Origin: Candidatus Latescibacterota bacterium
GTDB lineage: Bacteria > Latescibacterota > UBA2968 > UBA8231
DNA length: 64,000 bases
Direction of reading: 5' to 3'
Assembly (NCBI GenBank): GCA_965261395.1
Contig: OZ253462.1
Span: forward strand, 2,944,001 to 3,008,000
The notes below the pieces were generated by a model, which was given only the letters and a program-made list of their open reading frames with translations, did not search any database and was not told the DNA's origin. Shown here piece after piece: positions 21,317 through 34,633 of the stretch (position 1 is its first letter; each line of letters opens with the position of its first letter). Position numbers and translations under genes: made by a program.

Positions 21317-24300
21317 CGGCTCATCCCCGCGTGTGCGGGAACATATTGCAGAGAGTCGCGGCGTAACAACTTCACCCGGCTCATCCCCGCGTGTGCGGGG
21401 AACATTTAATAGTTTGCCACATAATGTGGTTAACTAGCGGCTCATCCCCGCGTGTGCGGGGAACATACAATGTGAAATCTACGCTGGGGCACCGCATCCG
21501 GTTCATCCCCGCGTGTGCGGGGAACATCACCATTCGCAGATCGTAGTCGTTCACGCTAACGGTTCATCCCCGCGTGTGCGGGGAACATCAGGTTCATCGG
21601 ATATAGAGCGCCAGCGGCGACGGTTCATCCCCGCGTGTGCGGGGAACATTTGGTAGGCAACCCCCCATCATTGGACCAGGCCGGTTCATCCCCGCGTGTG
21701 CGGGGAACATATGCTGATGCTGGCGAGGGCGAAGGGGTTCATCCCCGCGTGTGCGGGGAACATCTCGACAAGGCCCGCGACCGGTCAGCCAAGACCGGTT
21801 CATCCCCGCGTGTGCGGGGAACATATGGTGGAGGTCATAGTCACCCTCTCCAAGCTCGGTTCATCCCCGCGTGTGCGGGGAACATTTGCAGATGTTGACG
21901 GGTGCATAATGCGTATCCGGTTCATCCCCGCGTGTGCGGGGAACATGATGTAAATTTCCTGTGTCGCGCGCCGTCTGCCGGTTCATCCCCGCGTGTGCGG
22001 GGAACATTTCACGCAGGCGGCCAAAGAAGGCAACGTCCGCGGTTCATCCCCGCGTGTGCGGGGAACATTCCCTGGTCTGCCGAACCGAATCGCTAAAATC
22101 CGGTTCATCCCCGCGTGTGCGGGGAACATATTAACGCTCATAGCATCCAGCCCCACCACGCCGGTTCATCCCCGCGTGTGCGGGGAACATGGGGTCAGAA
22201 TACCCATCAGGATATTTCCTTTCGGTTCATCCCCGCGTGTGCGGGGAACATCGCCCCAAGTGGTGCATCATGCACACCAAGGTCGGTTCATCCCCGCGTG
22301 TGCGGGGAACATTGCTCAATCCAAGTCGAACCCGATCTTTCGAGCGGTTCATCCCCGCGTGTGCGGGGAACATCGGCCTCAGTCCCTCTACAATAACATG
22401 ACCATCGGTTCATCCCCGCGTGTGCGGGGAACATCAACAGCTCGAAGACCTCATCGTCAGACAACTCGGTTCATCCCCGCGTGTGCGGGGAACATTGGTG
22501 GTGGTGGCCCTCCGCCGCCGATGTAAACGGTTCATCCCCGCGTGTGCGGGGAACATAGATTATGTATATATCGGCGCAACATCTACGCCGGTTCATCCCC
22601 GCGTGTGCGGGGAACATACCATGGCAACGCAAAACGTATTTCAGATCATCGGTTCATCCCCGCGTGTGCGGGGAACATCCACTTCGGTTTTTTTGAACGC
22701 GAAGGCTTCCCGGTTCATCCCCGCGTGTGCGGGGAACATCCACTTCGGTTTCTTCGAACGCGAGGGTTTTCCGGTTCATCCCCGCGTGTGCGGGGAACAT
22801 ACGACCTAGGATACAATTACAACTCAGCCGGCCGGTTCATCCCCGCGTGTGCGGGGAACATCAAGTCTCAGCCGAGCCCCATTTCTTCTCAGACGGTTCA
22901 TCCCCGCGTGTGCGGGGAACATAAAAACTCGCCTTTTTTGATCGCGTTGAACGCCGGTTCATCCCCGCGTGTGCGGGGAACATAAGCTCGGCCCCATGAC
23001 GTTGCGGTACTCTAACGGTTCATCCCCGCGTGTGCGGGGAACATCTGGGGCTTGAGCCTATGTCGGGGTCGCTTATCGGTTCATCCCCGCGTGTGCGGGG
23101 AACATTCGCAATGCCTTATTGCTTTGCGCGTCAACGTCGGTTCATCCCCGCGTGTGCGGGGAACATCTCCCTGTCGTCAAGGTGAAACAAGGTGCGACCG
23201 GTTCATCCCCGCGTGTGCGGGGAACATTTCGCGCAAGCCCTTTGCCGCTTCTGCGATCTCGGTTCATCCCCGCGTGTGCGGGGAACATTTCGTCAAAGCC
23301 TTTATGCTCGCCCGCAAAGCCGGTTCATCCCCGCGTGTGCGGGGAACATATGCTTGTAACCTTCTGAATGAGGTTGCAAGGCGGTTCATCCCCGCGTGTG
23401 CGGGGAACATTTCCCTATCGAGCAACAGCAGAGAATCAAAGTCGGTTCATCCCCGCGTGTGCGGGGAACATATCTCCTTCTTGACCGCGCTCGCGTCGAT
23501 GTCCGGTTCATCCCCGCGTGTGCGGGGAACATTTCGCATCTGAGCGCGTCCAGCACAAATTTCCCGGTTCATCCCCGCGTGTGCGGGGAACATTTTCGTC
23601 AAAGCCTTTATGCTCGCGTCGATGTCCGGTTCATCCCCGCGTGTGCGGGGAACATATGCAAGCAACCTGCTGAATGAGGTTGCAAGGCGGTTCATCCCCG
23701 CGTGTGCGGGGAACATCTATTGTATTGATTGTATTGAAACGCGAAACACGGTTCATCCCCGCGTGTGCGGGGAACATTAGGGTCAGTATCCTGCGAAGCG
23801 ATGCAATCCTGGTTCATCCCCGCGTGTGCGGGGAACATAAGCAACTGACGTATTGTATTGACGCGAAACACGGTTCATCCCCGCGTGTGCGGGGAACATT
23901 GTAAAGGAATCGCTCGCCGACTCGCTGCCGACGGTTCATCCCCGCGTGTGCGGGGAACATATCGCCAGTCAATGCAGTCCGGTAGAGTCAAGCGGTTCAT
24001 CCCCGCGTGTGCGGGGAACATACGGCGAAACTGCTCGACACCTATGTCGATAGCGGTTCATCCCCGCGTGTGCGGGGAACATACGCCGGGACAATCCGGC
24101 AAAACGCTTTACCACGGTTCATCCCCGCGTGTGCGGGGAACATATACAGATCAGATCAGATCAGATCAGATCAGCCGGTTCATCCCCGCGTGTGCGGGGA
24201 ACATTTTAAAATAGTGGTGGAAAGTGCTTGACAATGCGGTTCATCCCCGCGTGTGCGGGGAACATAAAAGGCCAGCGGTTAAAATTTAACTATTGACCGG

Positions 24301-25424
24301 TTCATCCCCGCGTGTGCGGGGAACATGTTTAACTCCCCTCACGGGAGGAGCCTATCACCGGTTCATCCCCGCGTGTGCGGGGAACATGCGCGCTCGGGGC
24401 TTTTCTCGATGCGCGTTTTCGGTTCATCCCCGCGTGTGCGGGGAACATAGGTAGGCCGTGTACGGCCCGGTTGCCGATACCGGTTCATCCCCGCGTGTGC
24501 GGGGAACATCGGTTTAACTGCCATTGCTGGCAGCCCATCACCGGTTCATCCCCGCGTGTGCGGGGAACATTGCGATAGGGAGCGCGTTTATTGTGCGTGT
24601 TACGGTTCATCCCCGCGTGTGCGGGGAACATTCTCAATTATTGCTTGTGTTGGTATCGGCTACCGGTTCATCCCCGCGTGTGCGGGGAACATCGGTTTAA
24701 CTCCCGTCGCCGGGAGCCCATCACCGGTTCATCCCCGCGTGTGCGGGGAACATTTCTGCAAAGCCTTTATGCTCGTCCTCAGGGCCGGTTCATCCCCGCG
24801 TGTGCGGGGAACATTGTAAAGGAAACGCCCGCCGGCTCGTCGCCGACGGTTCATCCCCGCGTGTGCGGGGAACATTCCGGTTGGAACAAGGTAGGTTTTT
24901 CCTGCTACGGTTCATCCCCGCGTGTGCGGGGAACATGTGTGGGCTGAACTTTGGATCAGCCCGTGCGGCGGTTCATCCCCGCGTGTGCGGGGAACATCCT
25001 TGTGAGTGTGCTGCGTTTCCTGGGCTGAGCGGTTCATCCCCGCGTGTGCGGGGAACATAATATCGGCCAGCTTGGCCGATACAATGTTCGCGGTTCATCC
25101 CCGCGTGTGCGGGGAACATTGAGCAACTTCGGCAATCAGCAAGGCAAGGGCCGGTTCATCCCCGCGTGTGCGGGGAACATCCTCTATCGTCAAGTATCTC
25201 TGGGTGCTGCGTCGGTTCATCCCCGCGTGTGCGGGGAACATCGGGTGCTAATGGCGTTGAATAGTGCGAGTAGCGGTTCATCCCCGCGTGTGCGGGGAAC
25301 ATCTGGTATTCTTCGTCCAGGTGTTTGCGAGCATCGGTTCATCCCCGCGTGTGCGGGGAACATAATACCCGCACTCACATGAGGTAAATTTCAATCGGTT
25401 CATCCCCGCGTGTGCGGGGAACAT
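21317..25424 (-). CRISPR. type I-E CRISPR array, 68 repeats / 67 spacers
   Basis: 29-bp repeat CGGTTCATCCCCGCGTGTGCGGGGAACAT (+) = ATGTTCCCCGCACACGCGGGGATGAACCG (-), 61-bp period, mostly 32-nt spacers (one 24 nt, one 33 nt). Degenerate CGGCTC repeats at the 21317 end mark the trailer. Confidence 0.99.
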
Positions 25425-25529
25425 ACTTAATCGTAACTGCTTGCTACAGTTTAGGTTATATGCCATGCAAAATAGCTACCGACTATTTGACCCCCGATTC
25501 ACCCACTCCACATATGCCGAGAACATACT
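25425..25529 (-). promoter_or_regulatory. CRISPR leader
   Basis: AT-rich non-coding segment between the cas2 stop and the conserved end of the array. Confidence 0.8.
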
Positions 25530-25808
25530 TCACTCAGGCAAAAAAGATACGAGTCGAAGACCGTCAAAATCCACAGGTATCCGGCGGTTTGTGCCAAAGG
25601 TTTCAAACTCAAACCCCGCGTCATTGGGGGCGGCCCAAGCAATCACAGCATCACCGTCGCCGATGAGCTCGCACACATTGTCGCGGATCATAGCGCGGGT
25701 CTTTGCCGAGTAGTTGCCGATATAGACACCGGCTCGAAGTTCCAGAAGCCAAACCGCGAGCCGGCCCCGCAGGCGCGGCGGCACATTATTAGTCACCACT
25801 ATCATCAT
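25530..25808 (-). CDS. cas2: type I-E Cas2
   Basis: PPRLRGRLAVWLLELRAGVYIG...VDFDGLRLVSF. Confidence 0.97.
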   Translation of the reverse strand: MMIVVTNNVPPRLRGRLAVWLLELRAGVYIGNYSAKTRAMIRDNVCELIGDGDAVIAWAAPNDAGFEFETFGTNRRIPVDFDGLRLVSFLPE

Positions 25809-26752
25809 CCTCGATGGCCCTCATCTCCGCTTGAAGGTGGATCGGCAAAGGCCGGGCCTACCGCATCATCTGGCATTTTCGGCGGCGGCAACTCGCCCGC
25901 TGCGAGCACTTCTCCGATGGTTGGAATCAGTCGCCTGAGCAGCTTGGTTCTGCGGAACGTGTCCCGACACGCCAAGCGCACTTCGCGCACAGGCTCGGCA
26001 GAACGCCCCTTCGCGTGCTGTCCCGCAATGCGAAACGCTGTCGGCACCGCCGTCTCAAATTTGAATAAATCGGCAATGTCGTACACAAAGGAGAGGGGTT
26101 TACCAGTATGCAAGAAGCCGACTGCTGGGGCATATCCAGCCGCGAGCACGGCGGCTTCCGTAATGCCGTAGAGGCAGGCAGTTGCTGCCGAGAGGCAGCG
26201 GTTGGGCACATCGGAGAAGTTCCAATCCGAAGGATCGTAGCTGCGCCTTTTCCACTGTACTCCAAACTGCCGCGCCAAATTCTCATAAAGCGCACGTACA
26301 CGCGCCCCCTCAATTCCGCGAAGCTGTTCGACAGAACGGCGTTGCGGCGCTCGCTCGTCAAATCGGATTTGATACATCCGCCGCACGATCTTCAGCCGAG
26401 CGTCGGGGTCAAGCGCGAGGCGGCACTGCCACAGAAGCCTGTCGGACCGGGCACCTCCCGGCTGACCAGCCGCGTATAGGCGCACCCCGGCTTCACCGAC
26501 CCATATCAGCAAAGTACCGACCCGTGCGGCGAGTGCCACTGCAGCATGACTGACCCGCGCACCAGGTTCGAGCATGATGCAAGCCAACCCGCCAACGGGG
26601 ATGTGCGTCCGCACCCCCTTTACATCTACGAGCACAAAAGCTCCATCGAGTACGTCGAGTTGGCCCTTCTCCACAAAAACGATAGAGGTGCGGTCCTTTA
26701 TGGGGATCGGCTTGGGGGGCGGAGCACCCGGCATTCTGTCAGGGCTAGCCAT
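25805..26752 (-). CDS. cas1: type I-E Cas1
   Basis: LEPGARVSHAA, VGEAGVRLYA, QLRGIEGARVR, GFLHTGKPLSFVYDIAD. Confidence 0.98.
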   Translation of the reverse strand: MASPDRMPGAPPPKPIPIKDRTSIVFVEKGQLDVLDGAFVLVDVKGVRTHIPVGGLACIMLEPGARVSHAAVALAARVGTLLIWVGEAGVRLYAAGQPGGARSDRLLWQCRLALDPDARLKIVRRMYQIRFDERAPQRRSVEQLRGIEGARVRALYENLARQFGVQWKRRSYDPSDWNFSDVPNRCLSAATACLYGITEAAVLAAGYAPAVGFLHTGKPLSFVYDIADLFKFETAVPTAFRIAGQHAKGRSAEPVREVRLACRDTFRRTKLLRRLIPTIGEVLAAGELPPPKMPDDAVGPAFADPPSSGDEGHRG

Positions 26753-26775
26753 CAAGCGATCCTGCGTATAAGCGA

Positions 26776-26865
26776 TGGTTCATCCCCGCATGTGCGGGGA
26801 ACACAGAGGTAGTCATCAGGCGATCCTGCGCATGAGTGGGTCATCCTCGCGTGTGCGGGGAACAT
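26776..26865 (-). CRISPR. mini-array (degenerate repeat-32 nt spacer-degenerate repeat) at the cas6e/cas1 junction
   Basis: Repeats 26776-26804 and 26837-26865; spacer 26805-26836 matches 26741-26772 at 26/32. Confidence 0.9.
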
Positions 26866-27608
26866 CTGCGTATAAGCATCAGGCCGCAGCCAAATGCCTT
26901 GCCGCGCCCGAATCCCTGCCGAAGGCGGGCGAGAAACGAGTTAGGCTCGGTTATGGTCAAAGCACCTTTGAGGTCGAATATGCCCAAAGTGCCGAATTTC
27001 CCACCGCGCCGTGCGAAACGCTCGGCTCGATAGCCTTCGAGCATCAGTGCGTCAAGGCAGAATCCGTATGCTTCGGCCCGCGCCGCTAGCCAGTCGTAGG
27101 CCGCCTTTTTGGCAAACTGCATCCGATACTTGGCGCGGTTGAGGGATTCATCCCCGCGTGTGCGGGGAACATTCTTGAGCAAGTCCATGGCCACATCGCA
27201 GCGTTGCCGTATGGCCGGTTCATTCCCGTGTGTGCGAGAAACTTTCCGATCGACCGTGGCGTTAAGGCGCAGATCGAACGCCAGCCGGTCTCCTGGCGAG
27301 AGTGTCGGCTCGAAGGGCTTCGTCTCGATAGCGAAGAAGGGAGAGTCTTCCAAAGGCTTGGGGCCGAGAAGATAGTACCGCCCGCGCTGGCGGTCGGCCC
27401 GCCAAAGAAACGCGGATTTCGGCGTACCGGCAGTCCGGCTCTGCTCTACCTCAGTACGCACATTTGGCGGGATGACCGTCCAGATCAGCCGGTGATCTAC
27501 CGCGAGGCGGTCAGACGACTTTGATGGCTGAAGGACCTGTAGCAGGGGAGCTATGTCTGCGGCGTCGCGCCGGAGCGTAAGACGCGAAAAGTGGAGTGGC
27601 TCACTCAT
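26841..27608 (-). CDS. cas6e: Cas6e (Cse3/CasE) with repeat-derived insertions
   Basis: HRLIW, LAFDLRLNAT, GFGRGKAFGCGLML Gly-rich loop. Confidence 0.95.
   Translation of the reverse strand: MSEPLHFSRLTLRRDAADIAPLLQVLQPSKSSDRLAVDHRLIWTVIPPNVRTEVEQSRTAGTPKSAFLWRADRQRGRYYLLGPKPLEDSPFFAIETKPFEPTLSPGDRLAFDLRLNATVDRKVSRTHGNEPAIRQRCDVAMDLLKNVPRTRGDESLNRAKYRMQFAKKAAYDWLAARAEAYGFCLDALMLEGYRAERFARRGGKFGTLGIFDLKGALTITEPNSFLARLRQGFGRGKAFGCGLMLIRRCSPHTRG
27144..27244 (-). CRISPR. two CRISPR repeats embedded in frame in the cas6e CDS, 43 nt apart
   Basis: 27144-27172 matches consensus at 27/29; 27216-27244 at 24/29. Confidence 0.85.
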
Positions 27609-28321
27609 TGCGAAGCCTCCTCTTGGTCAGTGGGAACGTATTCGTATTCGCGCCGTTGCCCGAACTGCCAGCTCGTGCGGTCGCCCGGCTCGTCCATCCG
27701 CAGTCGCATCCGCAAGGAAGCATCGAGAGGACCGAGGTCCGCCCGATCCTCCACGGCGATTAGGCCATTCGGCCCATCGCTATGGCGCTTGAACGCATCA
27801 ACGACCGTTTGTGCTTCAATGATCTCCGGCGCGAGTGGGTGGGACAGTGGGCAGGACTTGCGCCCTAAATACAATGTATAAGCTGGCTTCTCAAACCCAG
27901 CTTTGAGGTCCCGCAACGAGTATCGTCCGCCCGATATGGCTCGGTAAGCCGCCTGATAGCGCACATCTGTGCGGTACTCTCGGTGGGTGATACTCGTCGC
28001 AAGGTCCAAGGGATGGGAAAGTGCCTCCGCTCTAGTTCGGGGATGTCCCTTGGCCGAAGGCAGCGACTGGTAAGTGTGAAAATCCGTCACCAACGTCCCG
28101 GCGCACAGGGTGCGAGTAGCGACGCGGAAAGAGGCAGCAAGCGCCCGCTGCCCTTCCGCATCGGCGCGATCAATACCCAGCGCCGCGCCCGCCATCCCCA
28201 AAAGGGCAGATCGCGTTGGACGGTCGGCCGTGCCACGCCGCACATTGCCTGCCTCTTCGCCGAAGCTGGCAAAGGGTGCGGCCAAGGTAATAATTAACCA
28301 TTTCCTCGGTTCACCATTCAT
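27605..28321 (-). CDS. cas5: Cas5e (CasD)
   Basis: LAAPFASFGE...PTRSALLGMAGAALG, DFHT, REY, LYLGRKSCP. Confidence 0.96.
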   Translation of the reverse strand: MNGEPRKWLIITLAAPFASFGEEAGNVRRGTADRPTRSALLGMAGAALGIDRADAEGQRALAASFRVATRTLCAGTLVTDFHTYQSLPSAKGHPRTRAEALSHPLDLATSITHREYRTDVRYQAAYRAISGGRYSLRDLKAGFEKPAYTLYLGRKSCPLSHPLAPEIIEAQTVVDAFKRHSDGPNGLIAVEDRADLGPLDASLRMRLRMDEPGDRTSWQFGQRREYEYVPTDQEEASQ

Positions 28322-28353
28322 TTTAGTCCCTTCGGGAATATATGTGGTTCGTG

Positions 28354-28443
28354 CGGTTCGTCCCCGCGGATACGGGGAACATCCTACGTGTAGTTGGATG
28401 TCGTCGCTTCAATCCGGTTCATCCCCGCAGGTGCGGGGAACGT
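28354..28443 (-). CRISPR. mini-array (repeat-32 nt spacer-repeat) between cas7 and cas5
   Basis: CGGTTCGTCCCCGCGGATACGGGGAACAT (28354-28382), spacer 28383-28414, CGGTTCATCCCCGCAGGTGCGGGGAACGT (28415-28443). Confidence 0.9.
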
Positions 28444-28462
28444 TTTGCCAAATAGCAAATTG

Positions 28463-29521
28463 CTACAGTTCCTCCGCTGCGAAGGCGGCTAGCTCCTCCA
28501 ACATGGCACTATCCTCTTCACCTACATGGAGTTCGCTGGCTTCCCAATCGTCGTCGTAGGTCTTCGCAAAGGCGGTACGCTGCTTCTTGAGTACCTTTAC
28601 GGACTCCCCGAGTTGGTCTTCCGATTTTACCGGCTTGGTGAAGGCACTAGCCAAGCTGCGAGGTTGGCTATCCCCGCGCTCTAACAACATGTATTCGGCG
28701 CGTACGTGATTGGCGAAGCTGTTTTTCTTACCGGAAGGCGATGCGGTCGCCGCAGCGCGTACTAGCGCGGAGAGCGCACGGCCTGCCAGTTCTGTATCGC
28801 TCGCAAGATTTTCCAGCAGCAGGACCCTATTTACGCAGATGTAGAGATAGAAGACGCCAGCGCCGAAACCCGCCTCTCCGATGAAACCCGCGCCCGCATC
28901 CTCTTCTGGGGTCTTCAGATCGTCAACAGCCGTGTAGTAGTCATCTTCAATATCGACTCGGTTGGTGGTAAAGGCATGAGCCACTTGCACGGCGGCATCG
29001 CGGTTGAAGTCGGGGTTGTCAGCCAACATGCGCCCGAACATAGCAATGTCCACGGCACCGTCGGCAGTGCTTAGGACCTGTTTCGCCAGTTCCTTTTCCT
29101 TCGGTAAGGTTTCCCCGCTCAGTGCCTTTTCTGCCAAATCGAATGCAGCAGCGCGTTCCTCCGGCGAGATGAAGGCTAGCTGTTCGGTATAGGCCGGATT
29201 TGGGTCTTTCTCATTCTTTACTTTACCGAACAGAGCAGCGATGGTCCGGGCGATTTCGAGCGCCTTGTCCTCCGAAGCACCCTTTTCTAGCAGATGCTCT
29301 CGCACCTTGTCGCCCATACGCTGCGTGCGCTCGCCTAGCTTTCCCGTTAGGGCGGACCGGAAAGCGTCGTCCGTGCGGATGGCGCGTTTGAGGGCTTGGC
29401 TGGAAATGCGCATCCGCGACACACCGCCGATGAAAGCGGTCTTGGGACGGCCGAGGTCGTCTCGGTTGGGGTTAGACGGTGGATAGGCTGTCAGAACGTG
29501 CATTTGCACAAAGCGGCTCAT
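28463..29521 (-). CDS. cas7: Cas7e (Cse4/CasC)
   Basis: YPPSNPNRDDLGRPK, RISSQALKRAIR, DIAMFGRM, DYYTAVDD, PSGKKNSFA. Confidence 0.97.
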   Translation of the reverse strand: MSRFVQMHVLTAYPPSNPNRDDLGRPKTAFIGGVSRMRISSQALKRAIRTDDAFRSALTGKLGERTQRMGDKVREHLLEKGASEDKALEIARTIAALFGKVKNEKDPNPAYTEQLAFISPEERAAAFDLAEKALSGETLPKEKELAKQVLSTADGAVDIAMFGRMLADNPDFNRDAAVQVAHAFTTNRVDIEDDYYTAVDDLKTPEEDAGAGFIGEAGFGAGVFYLYICVNRVLLLENLASDTELAGRALSALVRAAATASPSGKKNSFANHVRAEYMLLERGDSQPRSLASAFTKPVKSEDQLGESVKVLKKQRTAFAKTYDDDWEASELHVGEEDSAMLEELAAFAAEEL

Positions 29522-30090
29522 AGTTGAGTCTCCTCTTGGGGTTGGGTGTTCTCTGCGGCATCGGTCCGCCGCGTGTGATAGTAATCAAAGGTCCATTTCT
29601 GCCGAGTCTGGTCGTTAAAGAAAAGCACATCGCCGATAAAGCGAGGAACGTCGAATGGCGCATCGCCCAAAATAGCAAGGGTCCGGCGCAGTGCCCGTGC
29701 GAACATGTCCACATCAGTGCCATCCTTGAGCAGGTTGCTGAAGCGCATGGGCGACAGGCGTGGACGGGCGTCGCCTTTGGGGATGGAACCATCCCACGTG
29801 AGGCCCAAGGCGTCAGCGAAGGGGGGGAGATGGGCGGTCCTCTCGGAGGGTTTAACCCGCGCAAGGGCCATAGCCAGCACGGCGAGGCGCTGCTCAAGCG
29901 CGTGGCCGGCGGTAGCCTTTTCATGCACACTGGCGATCAACCTGTGGGTTTCTGGCTCTAAGAGGGCGTCGAATACGCTTTCGCAGCGCTTCAGCCGCGC
30001 CCGTGCACCCCGGTCTCCGTGGTCCGCGTGAAGCGATACCCACCAGTTCACCACTGCATTGACGGTAGGGTTATTTCGGTTGAGCTGCAT
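29518..30090 (-). CDS. cas11: Cas11e (Cse2/CasB)
   Basis: DRGARARLKRC, LSPMRFSNLL, WTFDYY; position between cas8e and cas7. Confidence 0.92.
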   Translation of the reverse strand: MQLNRNNPTVNAVVNWWVSLHADHGDRGARARLKRCESVFDALLEPETHRLIASVHEKATAGHALEQRLAVLAMALARVKPSERTAHLPPFADALGLTWDGSIPKGDARPRLSPMRFSNLLKDGTDVDMFARALRRTLAILGDAPFDVPRFIGDVLFFNDQTRQKWTFDYYHTRRTDAAENTQPQEETQL

Positions 30091-31748
30091 TAAGCGGTCT
30101 CCTTTTTGGTTTTGGATTTTTTCTCTGGCAAAGGAAGTTCGAGCTTGTCGTAAAGCGACTTGCTCTGCTTGGTCCAGCCAGCAAAGGTTGCGTTCAAGAT
30201 GCCGTAGGCATTGACGATTGTCTTGGCCTTCTCGGCGTCTTGCAAGGGCACGGGTGCCAGTCGGTCAAAAGTCGCAAGGGCTGCGCGGCGCATGATACCT
30301 AGCCAGTGCCGTGCGAGAGCGGTCTGGTCGAAGCCCCCATCTTCGGGCATTTCTTGGAGCAGATCGTCGAGCAGGTGGTGGAATTGGTCCTCGGTTGCGT
30401 CGAAGAAATCAGCCCGCGCTTGGTCGAGAATCCCCTTATCGTTTGAGGCATTCTTCTGGCCGCTGAAAAGTGCCTTTTTCAAGGCTGTTAACAACTGAGA
30501 AACCGCTTGATCGGCGGCTTCGGAGAAATGTCGGGCGAGATCGTCGAGAGCCTGTTGTTGATCGGATGTATTCGCCAGATGCAAAGGCTCCTCGGCGATG
30601 AGATAGGCGATTGCTTCCATGTTGTTCATGGCCCAACCGCCAACGCGGATGCGAGCATCGGCCGCTTGTTTATTCTGGCTAAGGGAATGGGAGCGATTAT
30701 TCTTGGAGAGCTTGATATTTGTGGGCTGTTCAGCCAGCTTGCCATCCTTGCTCCCTACCGTGACGGCAACCCAGTCTCGATAGCCAAAGCGTCCTGATTT
30801 TGGCTTGGCCGAATACGGCTCCCCTGCCTCTTTCAGGCGGCGGTAGGGCGTCAGCGGATGCTGCCATAGCCCATAATTTGTGCCGTAGGGCCTCTGGATA
30901 AATCCGGTGACCAGCGGTTCTTTTCTGCCGGTCATGGAGCAGATGCCCGGCTCGCTGGAAAAGACTAGCTGGATGCGGCGCGGCATACCGAAATACGCCT
31001 GCAAGGGGTGGGCGTCTGCTAGAGATACAGTACGACTTTTTTCCGATGTGAGTGTCGGGGCCATCCAAGGCAGGGCCTTGGGCAACTCATCTATTGGGAG
31101 TCGTTTATCGCAAGGCACCACATTGGCGAAAATTTTGTGCCACAAAGGCACGGGCGTTGCATCGTCATTAGTCGCCGGAACGACCAGTGCCGTCAAAGGC
31201 CCGCCTCCACGCATGGAAGTGCGGTTCCCGGCACCGCCGGCCGGCGCGTAGGCTTGCAGGGTGTACAGCGTCATGGCCGCAGCCGGTAGGCCAAGGGCAG
31301 CATAGCGGTTGCGGTGAGTCAATAGGTCCGAGTTTTTGCGCTGGCCGTTTTGCCCTGGTGTGTCGATGAGCAGTAGTTCAATAGGAGTTTCGTTGCCTTG
31401 CAGGGGCTCATAGTCCTGTAGGAAGCGCGGCCCTTCGCCGTTGAGATAGAAGGCAGAAACAAGAGGGGCGAGCTTTTCGGCGAGCGCGTCTCTATCCGGC
31501 GGATTGGTCCAAAAAGGACGCCAGTCGTCCTCTTCGCGGATATCGAAGGCCAACGAAATCACGCCGATGCAGAACTCGAAGCTCGCCATGTTGAAATCCG
31601 GGCGCGGCCAGTTAAACTCGACCGGGTAGTCTTCATCCAAGCCGTTGCTTTTGGGTCCAGCCACTAGTTCGGGAAAGGCAAGCCATCTCTGTGCTCCAGA
31701 TCGCATGACGACCGGGAGAAAGGGATCACTGAGCAGATTAAAAGTCAT
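30090..31748 (-). CDS. cas8e: Cas8e (Cse1/CasA)
   Basis: FNLLSDPFLPV, PRFLQD, APAGGAGNRTSMRGGGPLT, MPRRIQL, HPLTPY; AAGGAG RBS. Confidence 0.96.
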   Translation of the reverse strand: MTFNLLSDPFLPVVMRSGAQRWLAFPELVAGPKSNGLDEDYPVEFNWPRPDFNMASFEFCIGVISLAFDIREEDDWRPFWTNPPDRDALAEKLAPLVSAFYLNGEGPRFLQDYEPLQGNETPIELLLIDTPGQNGQRKNSDLLTHRNRYAALGLPAAAMTLYTLQAYAPAGGAGNRTSMRGGGPLTALVVPATNDDATPVPLWHKIFANVVPCDKRLPIDELPKALPWMAPTLTSEKSRTVSLADAHPLQAYFGMPRRIQLVFSSEPGICSMTGRKEPLVTGFIQRPYGTNYGLWQHPLTPYRRLKEAGEPYSAKPKSGRFGYRDWVAVTVGSKDGKLAEQPTNIKLSKNNRSHSLSQNKQAADARIRVGGWAMNNMEAIAYLIAEEPLHLANTSDQQQALDDLARHFSEAADQAVSQLLTALKKALFSGQKNASNDKGILDQARADFFDATEDQFHHLLDDLLQEMPEDGGFDQTALARHWLGIMRRAALATFDRLAPVPLQDAEKAKTIVNAYGILNATFAGWTKQSKSLYDKLELPLPEKKSKTKKETA

Positions 31749-31770
31749 TGATATCTCCTTAAAATATATA

Positions 31771-31821
31771 ACTAACCAACAGCTTACTACATACTCTAAA
31801 GAGGCAATCGTACCTTGTCAA
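31771..31821 (-). promoter_or_regulatory. sigma70-type promoter of cas8e with adjacent ATG PAM and crRNA-like RNA target
   Basis: TTGACA (31821-31816), 17 bp, TAGAGT (31798-31793), then ATG (31792-31790) and TAGTAAGCTGTTGGTTAGT (31789-31771). Confidence 0.8.
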
Positions 31822-31842
31822 GGGCAAGTTGCGGTCCATCAT

Positions 31843-31919
31843 TAATTAATCCCCGTGTGTACGGGGAACACGTTAGCCGACAGCATACTACGGCTCATTC
31901 CCGCGTCTGCGGGACAACA
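31843..31919 (-). ncRNA. CreR/CreA-like crRNA-like regulatory RNA (degenerate repeats with a 19-nt spacer)
   Basis: Repeats 31891-31919 (overlaps the cas3 stop) and 31843-31871 with compensated stems; spacer TAGTATGCTGTCGGCTAAC matches the cas8e promoter region. Confidence 0.85.
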
Positions 31920-34633
31920 AATCTAAAGCCCAGTCGGGCACAGTACATAAAATAACCGTCATCCTTCGCCCCTTCCAATCGCACCCTACTGCCCCCTTCT
32001 ACCACGGCTATCAATATTTCGCGTTCCCACTCCGGCCAGTCGCTTTTGGCCTGCTCTTGAAGGGCTTGGTCCTCGGGCGATGGCGAGGCTCCAGCGAGAA
32101 AATTCTCCCGTACCCGGATTTCAGACAAGGCCCAAGCCCTGTTGGGATCGTCGTCGGGTACCGTGCACCAAGGAATAAGACGATCTTCCTCTATACGAGC
32201 CAAACGCAACATAACGGTCGGCTCTCCCAGCCGAGTGCCAATATCTTCTGTGCCGCTCAATTCCGTCGGCAGGCTACCGTAGCCCTCTTCTAGGCTGACG
32301 ACGTTAAATCGGCCCAGCGAGCGACTGCCCATTTCCTTCCCTTCGTCTTCGATTTGCTTTTCTTCAAGGGCTGGCGGCACATCCCCATTGGCGTAAACGT
32401 ATTCAATCAACGGGCGAAAACTTTCCGGCGTGTCAATACATCCAGCGTCGGACAGGGCCTTCGCGCTGCGCCACATCACGCCGGCATTTTGATAGACAAA
32501 CGCTGCCTTGCCGAGTGCCGGCTCAAGCCAGTTTTGGTCTTCTACCTGATCCGGGTCCGGCGAGACTATGAGGGTATGCGGACTCTCTACAGGGCGGCTT
32601 TCCGGTGGACGCTTGTCCAAATGACGCCACATCCGACCAGCGCGCTGGATGATAAGATCCACTGGCGCGAGGTCCGAAATGACGAGATCAAAGTCGAGGT
32701 CGAGGCTTTGCTCAACCACCTGCGTGGCTACAAGGATATGGCCGGCCCGGCCTGTCGCTTTGGCGTCGCGCCCGAATCGGCGCAATACATCATTTTCTAT
32801 GACCTGCCTATCGCTTTGGGCAAACCGAGCGTGGAAGAGGTGAATGTGATCTGGGTTGTCCATTTGGCCCACAAGCGATTCATATACAGCGATGGCCTCA
32901 TCTACTGCGTTGCAGATGACCAGCACGGCCGCTTCCTCTTTTGCTGCGGAGAGAGCTCGTGTCTCGGCGGTTATTCGGTCGGGCAGGCGTTCTACCGTTA
33001 CGCTACGACGCAACGCAGAATCGAATCCCGACTCGCATTCCTGTACTCCGCCGATTGTGGCCGAGGTGAGCAGCGGGTACGCCTCACTGCATAGTTGATC
33101 GCTCAGATCTTCTGGGTCGCGCAAGCCGAGACCCTTGGCAAACGCCTCTGCCATATCGCGACGTTGCTGCAGAGATAAGGTCGCAGAGAGCACTATGGCG
33201 GAGCCGCCGTTTTGGGCGTGAAGTTCCAGCAGCGCGGAAAGTTCCTCGCCCATATAGGCATCAAAGCAATGGGCTTCATCAACTATGAGGATGCGGCCAG
33301 CCAGCCCGTATTGACGCAAGGTTAGATGTCTTTTAGGGAGGATCGAGAGAAAGGCTTGGTCAATGGTCCCCGCTCCGACATCTGCGTAAAAGGCTTTTCT
33401 TCGGTCGTCTGCAATCCATTGGGCGCAAAAGGCGGATGCGGTTTCATCCTCGCTGCCATTGGCCATGTCAGTGGAGTTGACGATGGCGCGGAACGCCTCG
33501 GACAGGTTCGACCTGCCGTGTGCCAAGACGAGTGAGAGGTCTTCGGAGGCTGAAGTTTCAAACAGCTTCTGGTAAGTCACCGCCAGCCGCTCGTACATAG
33601 CGTTGGCCGTTGCCATAGTCGGCAGCGCAAAGTACAGACCCTCGCCTTTGCCCGCCGCCATCATCCGGGCTGCGAGCATGATGGCCGCTTCTGTTTTACC
33701 GGCCCCTGTGGTGTCTTCTAAGATGAACAACTGCGCTCCGTCCTTGAGCGGTGCTTCTTCCGCCAGTTTCTGCATGGGTCTTGGATGAGGGGCAGCTTGT
33801 GGAGCAAAACTAGCATAACTCGGACGGGACTCCGGGGACTGGGCCAGTAACCCCTTTCCCACTAGGGCTTTTTCGGCCTGAGTAAGCGCCCACTCCCAAT
33901 AGTCCTCCAGCCTCGTATCGACCGATTCAAAAGAGAAGTAATCGGAGTCTGAACCGACCCAGTCGGCCAGTGTGACAAGCCCTGACAAGCGCCAAGACCA
34001 CTGCGCCGTCTGCTTCTGCTTTTCGAGAGACGATAGAGGCAGAGGCTCTATCAGGTTCCGGAGCATACAAAAGGCAGTATGAGCCGCGTCCACGCATTCC
34101 TCACCAAGCTGCTGGTCGCGCCGAGCTTTGCCTGGATCGGCATTTACTTCATCCTGTCCCTCGGGTGGTCGTCCATGGTGCCCCGCAATGGCAGCAATGA
34201 TCGGTGCTATATCATAAGGGATGCTAGGGAATAAGCTGGCGAACTCTTGGGATATTGGCTCGGCCCTGAGAAGGATAGCCGTGTTGCGCCAATGACCACG
34301 GTCGGCGATTTCTCTCTTCGGGCCAAGGACCTGCTCTGGCCACAATTGGGGTACCTTCGCCTGAAAGCTGCGTGAAAATTTGCCAAGATCGTGTATGCCA
34401 GCCAGAAAAGCAGTGATCTTGGATAAGCACTCTGGACTCGCTTTCAACAAAGCGGCCTCGCGCTCAAGACGGGCAGGATTCAATTGCTGCCATCGCAGGG
34501 CGACAGCAGCGACATCCATCAAATGATGTAAGACAGGCTTATAGCTACGTGTATCATTGAATACAGTTTCCGAGGAATTGCCAGCACTACGAAGCGTCTT
34601 GCCCCAAAATTCCAAGAGGCGGGCGGCTTCCAT
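31895..34633 (-). CDS. cas3: Cas3 HD nuclease-helicase
   Basis: HLMDVAAV, HDLGK, HHG, DWVGS, TTGAGKTE, DEAH, LSAT, ATQVVEQSLDLDFD, QRAGR; likely start MEAARLL 1 nt after the upstream stop. Confidence 0.97.
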   Translation of the reverse strand: MEAARLLEFWGKTLRSAGNSSETVFNDTRSYKPVLHHLMDVAAVALRWQQLNPARLEREAALLKASPECLSKITAFLAGIHDLGKFSRSFQAKVPQLWPEQVLGPKREIADRGHWRNTAILLRAEPISQEFASLFPSIPYDIAPIIAAIAGHHGRPPEGQDEVNADPGKARRDQQLGEECVDAAHTAFCMLRNLIEPLPLSSLEKQKQTAQWSWRLSGLVTLADWVGSDSDYFSFESVDTRLEDYWEWALTQAEKALVGKGLLAQSPESRPSYASFAPQAAPHPRPMQKLAEEAPLKDGAQLFILEDTTGAGKTEAAIMLAARMMAAGKGEGLYFALPTMATANAMYERLAVTYQKLFETSASEDLSLVLAHGRSNLSEAFRAIVNSTDMANGSEDETASAFCAQWIADDRRKAFYADVGAGTIDQAFLSILPKRHLTLRQYGLAGRILIVDEAHCFDAYMGEELSALLELHAQNGGSAIVLSATLSLQQRRDMAEAFAKGLGLRDPEDLSDQLCSEAYPLLTSATIGGVQECESGFDSALRRSVTVERLPDRITAETRALSAAKEEAAVLVICNAVDEAIAVYESLVGQMDNPDHIHLFHARFAQSDRQVIENDVLRRFGRDAKATGRAGHILVATQVVEQSLDLDFDLVISDLAPVDLIIQRAGRMWRHLDKRPPESRPVESPHTLIVSPDPDQVEDQNWLEPALGKAAFVYQNAGVMWRSAKALSDAGCIDTPESFRPLIEYVYANGDVPPALEEKQIEDEGKEMGSRSLGRFNVVSLEEGYGSLPTELSGTEDIGTRLGEPTVMLRLARIEEDRLIPWCTVPDDDPNRAWALSEIRVRENFLAGASPSPEDQALQEQAKSDWPEWEREILIAVVEGGSRVRLEGAKDDGYFMYCARLGFRFVVPQTRE

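Follow-up and report, generated by a model that had tools for sequence, protein, structure and literature searches.

In-frame copies of the CRISPR repeat within the cas6e gene of a type I-E operon from a Candidatus Latescibacterota bacterium

The stretch of 64,000 nt analysed here (the window; positions 2,944,001–3,008,000 of contig OZ253462.1, assembly GCA_965261395.1, Candidatus Latescibacterota bacterium) harbours a type I-E cas operon together with a CRISPR array. Two copies of the array repeat are embedded in frame within the coding sequence of cas6e, the gene for the CRISPR processing enzyme, and a third copy covers its 3' end. The feature is real and rare: ectopic CRISPR repeats and mini-arrays, here in a variant that is embedded in a coding sequence. 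The account regarded as moderately probable is that ectopic copies of the array repeat overwrote two Cas6e loops in frame, that the downstream copy would render Cas6e production self-limiting, and that the copies are young or transient and costly, and do not represent a conserved regulatory device. The following elements (window coordinates) are concerned:

26841–27608, minus strand: cas6e coding sequence, 255 amino acids (aa), intact (open reading frame and Pfam)
27216–27244, minus strand: upstream repeat copy within cas6e, in Cas6e loop 1, 24/29 positions as in the array repeat; 5'-handle part (last 8 nt) 8/8, hairpin part degenerate
27173–27215, minus strand: conserved stretch of 43 nt of cas6e codons lying between both copies (AIRQRCDVAMDLLK)
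27144–27172, minus strand: downstream repeat copy within cas6e, in Cas6e loop 2, 27/29 positions; identical to the array repeat at positions 1–26
26865–26837, minus strand: third repeat copy within cas6e, three mismatches, one C·A within the stem; first repeat of the cas6e–cas1 mini-array
~21317–25424, minus strand: main CRISPR array, 68 repeats with a 61-nt period, following the leader; source of the 29-nt consensus repeat

Measured against the consensus of the 68 array repeats, the downstream copy (27172–27144) deviates at positions 27 and 29 (two of 29) and the upstream copy (27244–27216) at positions 2, 6, 8, 16 and 21 (five of 29), in agreement with an earlier note on this DNA. Both are in frame in the open reading frame of 255 aa, where the peptides KVSRTHGNEP and NVPRTRGDES, also described in that note, flank ...RQRCDVAMDLLK. 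The compensated exchange of a C-G for a U-A pair reported for the upstream stem is real (positions 6 and 21), and the same stem additionally contains a U·G wobble at position 8 and a C·A mismatch at the loop-closing pair (position 16), which the note omitted. Overlooked by it was the third copy (26865–26837), which takes the place of the two final codons of the ancestral cas6e frame and supplies seven new codons (CSPHTRG) as well as the stop.

According to a genome-wide repeat search, the main array is the sole array of its kind in the 6.55-Mb genome. On both strands of the genome, 79 sequences match the consensus repeat with up to eight mismatches: 68 in the array, eight in the cas operon and three elsewhere, each of the latter at eight mismatches. 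Shuffled versions of the window (n = 20) contained 0–2 matches (mean 0.3) at up to nine mismatches, compared with eight outside the array in the real window, all located on the minus strand. Chance is excluded as the source of the repeat copies in the cas operon.

That array repeats ended up in cas6e through an error of assembly or sequencing is given next to no credence. Repeats break short-read assembly graphs, and the contigs of one run (X7) indeed end at the downstream copy; however, both copies are bridged without a single difference by contigs from three other runs of three studies (X2, 2274 nt spanning 26700–27670; X8, 546 nt spanning 26958–27503; X12, 388 nt spanning 26994–27381). Furthermore, homologous proteins of other assemblies share the motifs, and the reading frame is preserved. 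In all, the DNA is backed by contigs of four runs belonging to four studies; those of X7, the fourth, carry a T>C variant at 27229, by which the loop-closing pair of the upstream stem is C-G again.

Cas6e is otherwise intact and, judged from sequence and structural model, probably active. The protein matches Pfam PF08798 with 117.2 bits (cut-off 25; residues 6–248), its AlphaFold2 model has a mean predicted local distance difference test score (pLDDT) of 87.2, and the best structural matches retrieved by Foldseek are the Cse3-RNA complexes of T. thermophilus (E = 7.7e-15) and CasE of E. coli. His39, which is taken here to be equivalent to the catalytic His of solved Cas6e enzymes, and the glycine-rich loop G232–G242 are invariant among 27 sequences. 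With cas3, cse1, cse2, cas7, cas5, cas1 and cas2 all yielding Pfam matches, the type I-E context is complete. The earlier note had made its proposal depend on a working Cas6e, and by Pfam score (117 bits), fold and the invariant His39 and glycine-rich loop the enzyme looks functional.

In the AlphaFold2 model, the upstream copy forms the tip of a β-hairpin between strands 118–124 and 133–138, and the downstream copy is located in the loop 146–155 joining two helices; the repeat-derived blocks (pLDDT 62–75) are the least confident part of the model. Alignments identify both sites as variable spots of the Cas6e family, so that the proposed location in variable loops is borne out by model and alignments alike. 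The notion of two insertions requires correction. Codon alignment with ten related loci revealed 24 nt for loop 1 in the window versus 21 nt in the relatives (+1 codon), and 33 nt for loop 2 versus 15 nt in the closest repeat-less alleles (+6 codons), while loop 2 of the outgroup L028 and of more distant homologues has the length found in the window (no codons added). Judged from these alignments, the repeat sequence overwrote loop codons and is a replacement, not a clean insertion.

The downstream copy is predicted to fold into a hairpin of −14.3 kcal/mol, the same value as calculated for the array repeat, with G and an intact pair before the cut. In contrast, the hairpin of the upstream copy is weak (−5.3 kcal/mol, z = −1.2), contains one C·A mismatch and has A in place of G before the cut (position 21). 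Both hairpins appear in the minimum free energy and centroid folds of the 191-nt context. Cas6e binds its hairpin tightly and specifically and cuts at the 3' base of the stem. Since the downstream copy equals the array repeat across hairpin and cut site, free Cas6e should cut it. As far as the sequences tell, only this copy is a convincing Cas6e substrate; the earlier proposal of cleavage at both copies is retained for the downstream and rendered doubtful for the upstream one.

Within 25400–32000, the minus strand has a single promoter-like site, upstream of cse1 (31821–31793), and the repeat pairs at cas7–cas5, in cas6e and at cas6e–cas1 (see below) are therefore expected to reside within the cse1-to-cas2 message. 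Cas6e is predicted to cut the cas6e messenger RNA (mRNA) between 27152 and 27151, which would leave a stop-less cas5-cas6e 5' fragment and end that message. The output of Cas6e would thereby be self-limiting and would be relieved by competition, when the precursor CRISPR RNA (pre-crRNA) with its 68 repeats soaks up the enzyme. Such self-cleavage is probably the expected physical result of the downstream copy. A crRNA-like RNA of 8+43+21 nt (72 nt) is possible but doubtful and would at best form inefficiently, because the weak hairpin of the upstream copy and the A before its cut make release of this 43-nt-spacer RNA uncertain. The stops of cas3 and cas6e both lie within the A-TGA of a repeat, just 3' of the predicted cut, and cutting at the repeats at the ends of these two genes would also strip their stop codons.

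Repeat-like matches in or at cas6e (up to six mismatches) were detected in none of 98 related type I-E loci with an array. Among the 40 closest Cas6e homologous proteins, loop 1 is repeat-derived in six (P0002, P0003, P0004, P0010, P0037, P0041), loop 2 in five (P0037, intact; P0041, in another frame; P0003 and P0004, decayed; P0010, remnant) and the C-terminus in four (P0002, P0005, P0015, P0037), the three sites occurring in mosaic combinations. P0041 (encoded on a 44-kb contig) shows several frame shifts, indicative of a pseudogene or of assembly indels. The related locus L020 possesses decayed copies at both cas6e sites (10 and 8 mismatches). Polarised with seven outgroup alleles, private changes in the repeat segments number 13 for L020 and 3 for the window; the remainder of the gene has 67 and 14, respectively (Fisher p = 1.0). 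The repeat segments thus follow the gene-wide ratio and the stronger decay in L020 reflects its longer branch; its interpretation as a sign of conservation in the window was ruled out by the gene-wide counts.

The homologue P0037 (173 aa) is 97% identical to Cas6e of the window up to the downstream copy, after which 11 foreign residues (33 nt), a second repeat in the +1 frame and a stop follow. The 33 nt correspond to C1:5778861–5778893 of the genome, where AAG precedes on the opposite strand. The same letters form a loose end at 27145 in run X7, which also carries the 27229 variant encoded by P0037. The simplest reading of these sequences is that a sister strain took up a spacer ectopically at the repeat within the gene, whereby the repeat would have been duplicated and cas6e broken. 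A deletion into the array would be another, less likely account; the retained non-consensus tail of the copy within the gene argues against a crossover within the repeat. By the same principle, a solitary repeat and one uptake would produce a repeat-spacer-repeat pair, which could explain the pairs at cas7–cas5 and cas6e–cas1. The copies in cas6e would derive from the CRISPR array via recombination or ectopic adaptation, would be evolutionarily young or transient, and would be costly in that further spacers can be taken up ectopically at them. Gene conversion as a model for the pair in cas6e was rejected: it fits the upstream copy abutting an AAG boundary, but fails on the spacing of 43 instead of 32 nt.

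The copies in cas6e belong to a set of four mini-CRISPRs along the coding strand of one operon. Eight repeat-like 29-mers lie outside the array, every one of them on the coding strand, and form four pairs: at cas3–cse1 (19-nt spacing), at cas7–cas5 (32 nt), within cas6e (43 nt) and at cas6e–cas1 across the cas6e stop (32 nt). Mini-arrays were compared among 11 loci. The operon and the further elements are:

25530–34633, minus strand: type I-E cas operon (cas3, cse1, cse2, cas7, cas5, cas6e, cas1, cas2; Pfam matches)
31895–34633, minus strand: cas3 (Pfam match)
31843–31919, minus strand: CreR-type mini-array composed of a degenerate repeat (31919–31891), a 19-nt spacer (31890–31872) and a degenerate repeat (31871–31843)
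31771–31821, minus strand: cse1 promoter-like site (31821–31793) and ATG-flanked partial target (31789–31771) of the CreR-type spacer
30090–31748, minus strand: cse1 (Pfam match)
29518–30090, minus strand: cse2 (Pfam match)
28463–29521, minus strand: cas7 (Pfam match)
28354–28443, minus strand: cas7–cas5 mini-array composed of a repeat (28443–28415), a 32-nt spacer (28414–28383) and a repeat (28382–28354)
27605–28321, minus strand: cas5 (Pfam match)
26805–26836, minus strand: spacer (32 nt) in the cas6e–cas1 mini-array, which shares 26/32 positions with the native junction of cas6e end and cas1 start downstream
26776–26804, minus strand: second repeat of the cas6e–cas1 mini-array, three mismatches, hairpin intact
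26741–26772, minus strand: native copy of the junction, comprising the 3' end of the ancestral frame of cas6e and the cas1 ATG; spacer mismatches at positions 3, 6, 18, 24, 28 and 30
25805–26752, minus strand: cas1 (Pfam match)
25530–25808, minus strand: cas2 (Pfam match)

In the CreR-type mini-array, the cas3 stop is located inside the first degenerate repeat (31919–31891), and the target (31789–31771) begins 3 nt past the −10 element and differs from the spacer at positions 6, 12, 15, 18 and 19. This arrangement is present in 8 of the 11 loci, with co-variation of spacer and target in L020 and L100. The pair displays all listed class features and is, on these sequence features, a member of the CreR/crlRNA class, i.e. 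of a known kind. The cas7–cas5 mini-array occurs in four of the 11 loci with a nearly identical spacer, and a 10-nt motif of the main leader recurs before it at the same distance (17 nt) from the first repeat. Directly after its second repeat, 9 nt are duplicated in tandem (28322–28362, minus strand); L021, L022 and L026 lack this duplication. The 32 nt after this mini-array were considered as a second spacer and rejected, their length being due to the tandem duplication and no other match being found. The first cas5 codons of the mini-array carriers differ from those of non-carriers and bear a faint likeness to the repeat tail. In the cas6e–cas1 region, a native cas6e tail of 11 nt is followed by a repeat, 32 nt, a second repeat, 3 nt and the complete native junction, which includes the cas1 ATG; this junction is preceded by TCG in the window and by ATG in all other alleles. 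Tandem duplication of 61 nt, integration of a spacer-repeat circle and unequal array exchange were tried as origins, and none yields the observed order.

Each of the four enclosed segments has a cas-operon match, in the window itself or in a related allele, that adjoins AAG or ATG (for the cas6e segment, AAA in four alleles). Among 942 spacers from the main arrays of the 11 loci, none matches the cas operons beyond 14–19 nt, so that spacers derived from the cas operon are a property of the embedded pairs. Directly before the 43-nt segment of cas6e, four alleles without the repeats have AAG and four others AAA; in the window this place is taken by the CCG of the repeat, as the earlier note had stated for this self flank. 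Its AAG-flanked counterpart in L027 differs at positions 6, 27, 34 and 43, and a genome-wide target search revealed no site other than the segment itself with fewer than 13 paired mismatches. The spacer of the cas7–cas5 mini-array has no match beyond itself in its own genome, and matches the AAG-flanked cas7 3' end in five alleles without the mini-array with 3–8 mismatches (L024, three at positions 6, 19 and 24; L023 and L027, five each; L020, six; L028, eight). The four carriers have no match within nine mismatches in their own cas7, since the seed, or the protospacer-adjacent motif (PAM) plus the seed, is changed. At this site (cas7 3' end, ~28530–28570, minus strand) carriers are altered in the seed, or in PAM and seed along with a 3-nt deletion. 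The junction spacer of cas6e–cas1 matches all other alleles, flanked by ATG.

In Cascade, every sixth spacer position is unpaired. Mismatches coincide with these positions in 6/9 cases for the cas7–cas5 and cas6e–cas1 spacers (p ~2e-4) and in 9/14 upon inclusion of the CreR-type pair. Position 6 of the cas7–cas5 spacer is A, which would create a stop codon in cas7 and is therefore not a shared synonymous polymorphism. Taken together, this hints that the embedded guides may have stayed under selection for pairing, in which case the partners might be the own promoter (cas3–cse1), own or other junctions (cas6e–cas1) and cas7 of other alleles (cas7–cas5).

Different readings of the copies in cas6e were weighed. 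The negative feedback proposed in the earlier note was weighed as a dedicated, selected circuit, in which Cas6e would be tuned to the crRNA load by cleavage of its own mRNA and the 43-nt-spacer product would act as an inert Cascade decoy; this is considered unlikely. The circuit would account for the perfect hairpin and cut site of the downstream copy, for the perfect 5' handle of the upstream copy with mismatches limited to discarded parts, for the improvement of the upstream stem by the X7 variant (27229 T>C), and for the placement of the cas3 and cas6e stops in A-TGA 3' of the predicted cut, which would also give stop-less messages. However, a selected trait is difficult to reconcile with its presence in 0 of 98 related loci, with the mosaic occurrence in close homologues, decayed in L020, P0003 and P0010 and partial in P0002, and with private changes (3 versus 13) that match the gene-wide numbers (14 versus 67; Fisher p = 1.0) and thus reveal no excess conservation; moreover, the upstream hairpin is weak, and the hazard is apparent from P0037 and X7, with cas6e broken in the sister strain. 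Inert scars, i.e. recombination debris tolerated in loops and masked by ribosomes or structure so that expression is unaffected, would fit the mosaic and decaying distribution, the absence of excess conservation and the position of the hairpin within a translated region, but are regarded as very unlikely: the downstream copy equals the array repeat over positions 1–26 and folds in context, enzymes of the Cas6e family bind such repeat hairpins very tightly, and in the sister strain the copy seems to have been treated as a repeat.

Quite unlikely is the reading that the pairs at cas7–cas5, in cas6e and at cas6e–cas1 are hard-wired guide genes yielding crRNAs against PAM-flanked sites in sister cas alleles. 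The carrier's own copies would be spared where their PAM or seed is changed or where the repeat stands in the PAM's place. Rival alleles would thereby be kept out or displaced, through allele exclusion, addiction or a homing-like drive that links guide and immune allele; self-cleavage by Cas6e would serve as a built-in brake, and in cas6e a working piece of the gene would double as its own spacer. This agrees with the AAG-flanked cas7 matches in L024, L023, L027, L020 and L028 versus none within nine mismatches in the four carriers, with the matches of the cas6e segment (L027, AAG) and of the junction spacer (all other alleles, ATG), and with the clustering of mismatches at every sixth position (6/9, p ~2e-4; 9/14 with the CreR-type pair). 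However, the comparator alleles were picked after the fact, and the every-sixth signal is confounded by third-codon positions, with five of six junction mismatches at multiples of 3 (p = 0.006). The own cas7 site is intact in 0/4 carriers versus 5/7 non-carriers, a difference with Fisher p = 0.06, uncorrected for phylogeny; L025 and L100 lack the site as well as the mini-array; and the cas7 window of carriers is moderately diverged (9–12/35), placing it within the top 18–21% of windows. In addition, the 43-nt spacer does not exceed 32 nt by a multiple of 6, and most rival cas6e alleles are mismatched at seed position 3 or 4.

Some points weigh against the account of in-frame loop replacement by ectopic, probably transient repeats with a self-limiting downstream copy. 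The sister-strain event is documented by one protein and a 30-nt loose end. The recombination route is incomplete, since the second copy in cas6e follows the first after 43 and not 32 nt. Coupled translation may unwind the hairpin and thereby limit the access of Cas6e. Lastly, the five mismatches of the upstream copy all fall in the part discarded from the crRNA and the two of the downstream copy in the discarded tail (product p ~0.012, post hoc), a placement that may hint at selection for the mature RNA.

Several side observations were made on the main array and its leader. Repeat spacing is irregular twice, at 53 nt (24-nt spacer) and 62 nt, within 21685–21761 and 23568–23653 (minus strand), and the terminal repeat (21345–21317) has six mismatches. 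Just past the cas2 stop (~25494–25526, minus strand), the distal leader end resembles, by eye only, a strongly decayed repeat: start and finish are repeat-like with an insertion inside, and similar sequence occurs in the leaders of most related loci.

Autogenous control is known from RNase III and RNase E, which cleave their own mRNAs at conserved sites in the leaders. With these the present case shares, by sequence, the recognition element of an endoribonuclease in its own transcript; in contrast, the site in cas6e is a captured CRISPR repeat inside codons. Solitary repeat units have been described in viruses (PMC10651486). Neo-CRISPRs can form spontaneously, and the adaptation machinery can act on a repeat that lies outside an array. 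The form found in P0037 and X7 (repeat, 33 nt whose reverse complement follows AAG at the source, repeat) fits such ectopic spacer integration, and since the receiving repeat lies inside cas6e, spacer uptake there breaks the gene. Among the papers listed in a literature search, supplements aside, none described a Cas6-family enzyme with its own repeat in the coding sequence or cutting its own mRNA, or mini-arrays aimed at cas coding regions, which is not proof of absence.

CreR/crlRNA mini-arrays of type I systems are typically located between cas3 and cas8e in type I-E (Shmakov et al., bioRxiv 10.1101/2023.03.03.530964; Liu et al., bioRxiv 10.1101/2023.03.10.532045), and repeat-like sequences are reported to be depleted within cas genes (Shmakov et al.). 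As in CreR, the cas6e pair consists of two repeat-like units around a segment, on the cas strand and within the predicted cas transcript, and retains the 5' handle (8/8, upstream unit) and the hairpin part (21/21, downstream unit). Unlike known regulatory mini-CRISPRs, which are intergenic, it resides in frame inside a coding sequence, its "spacer" consists of 43 nt of functional cas6e codons and is longer than usual, and the genome offers the segment no second target near a promoter. Without intergenic location and promoter-proximal partial target, the pair was not filed in the CreR class. In CreTA, the two degenerate repeats of the CreA mini-CRISPR (PMC8501985) still yield a processed guide, a feature that the cas6e pair may share; different from CreTA, no toxin partner was seen here and the cas6e pair is not intergenic. 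The closest functional analogy is provided by processing of TnpB mRNA to omega-RNA (PMC10278001), where a guide-type RNA is contained in the message of the nuclease and its making destroys the mRNA. Protein family and RNA differ, and the overlap is conserved and defining for TnpB, whereas it is sporadic for cas6e.

The locus represents a natural case of a CRISPR processing enzyme whose substrate lies in frame in its own gene, despite the reported depletion of repeat-like sequences within cas genes and the intergenic location of known regulatory mini-CRISPRs. The copies in cas6e would constitute a directly testable feedback loop and are, on the distribution among homologues, probably transient and not a conserved regulatory device. 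Operons processed by Cas6 or Csy4 have been engineered, and if the cleavage proves true, cas6e would be their natural counterpart. Beyond cas6e, the locus offers a snapshot of ectopic repeats arising, taking up spacers and decaying, and indicates that cas genes can themselves be the source of mini-array spacers, which bears on the origin of CreR-type regulators and on whether CRISPR loci compete with one another as alleles.

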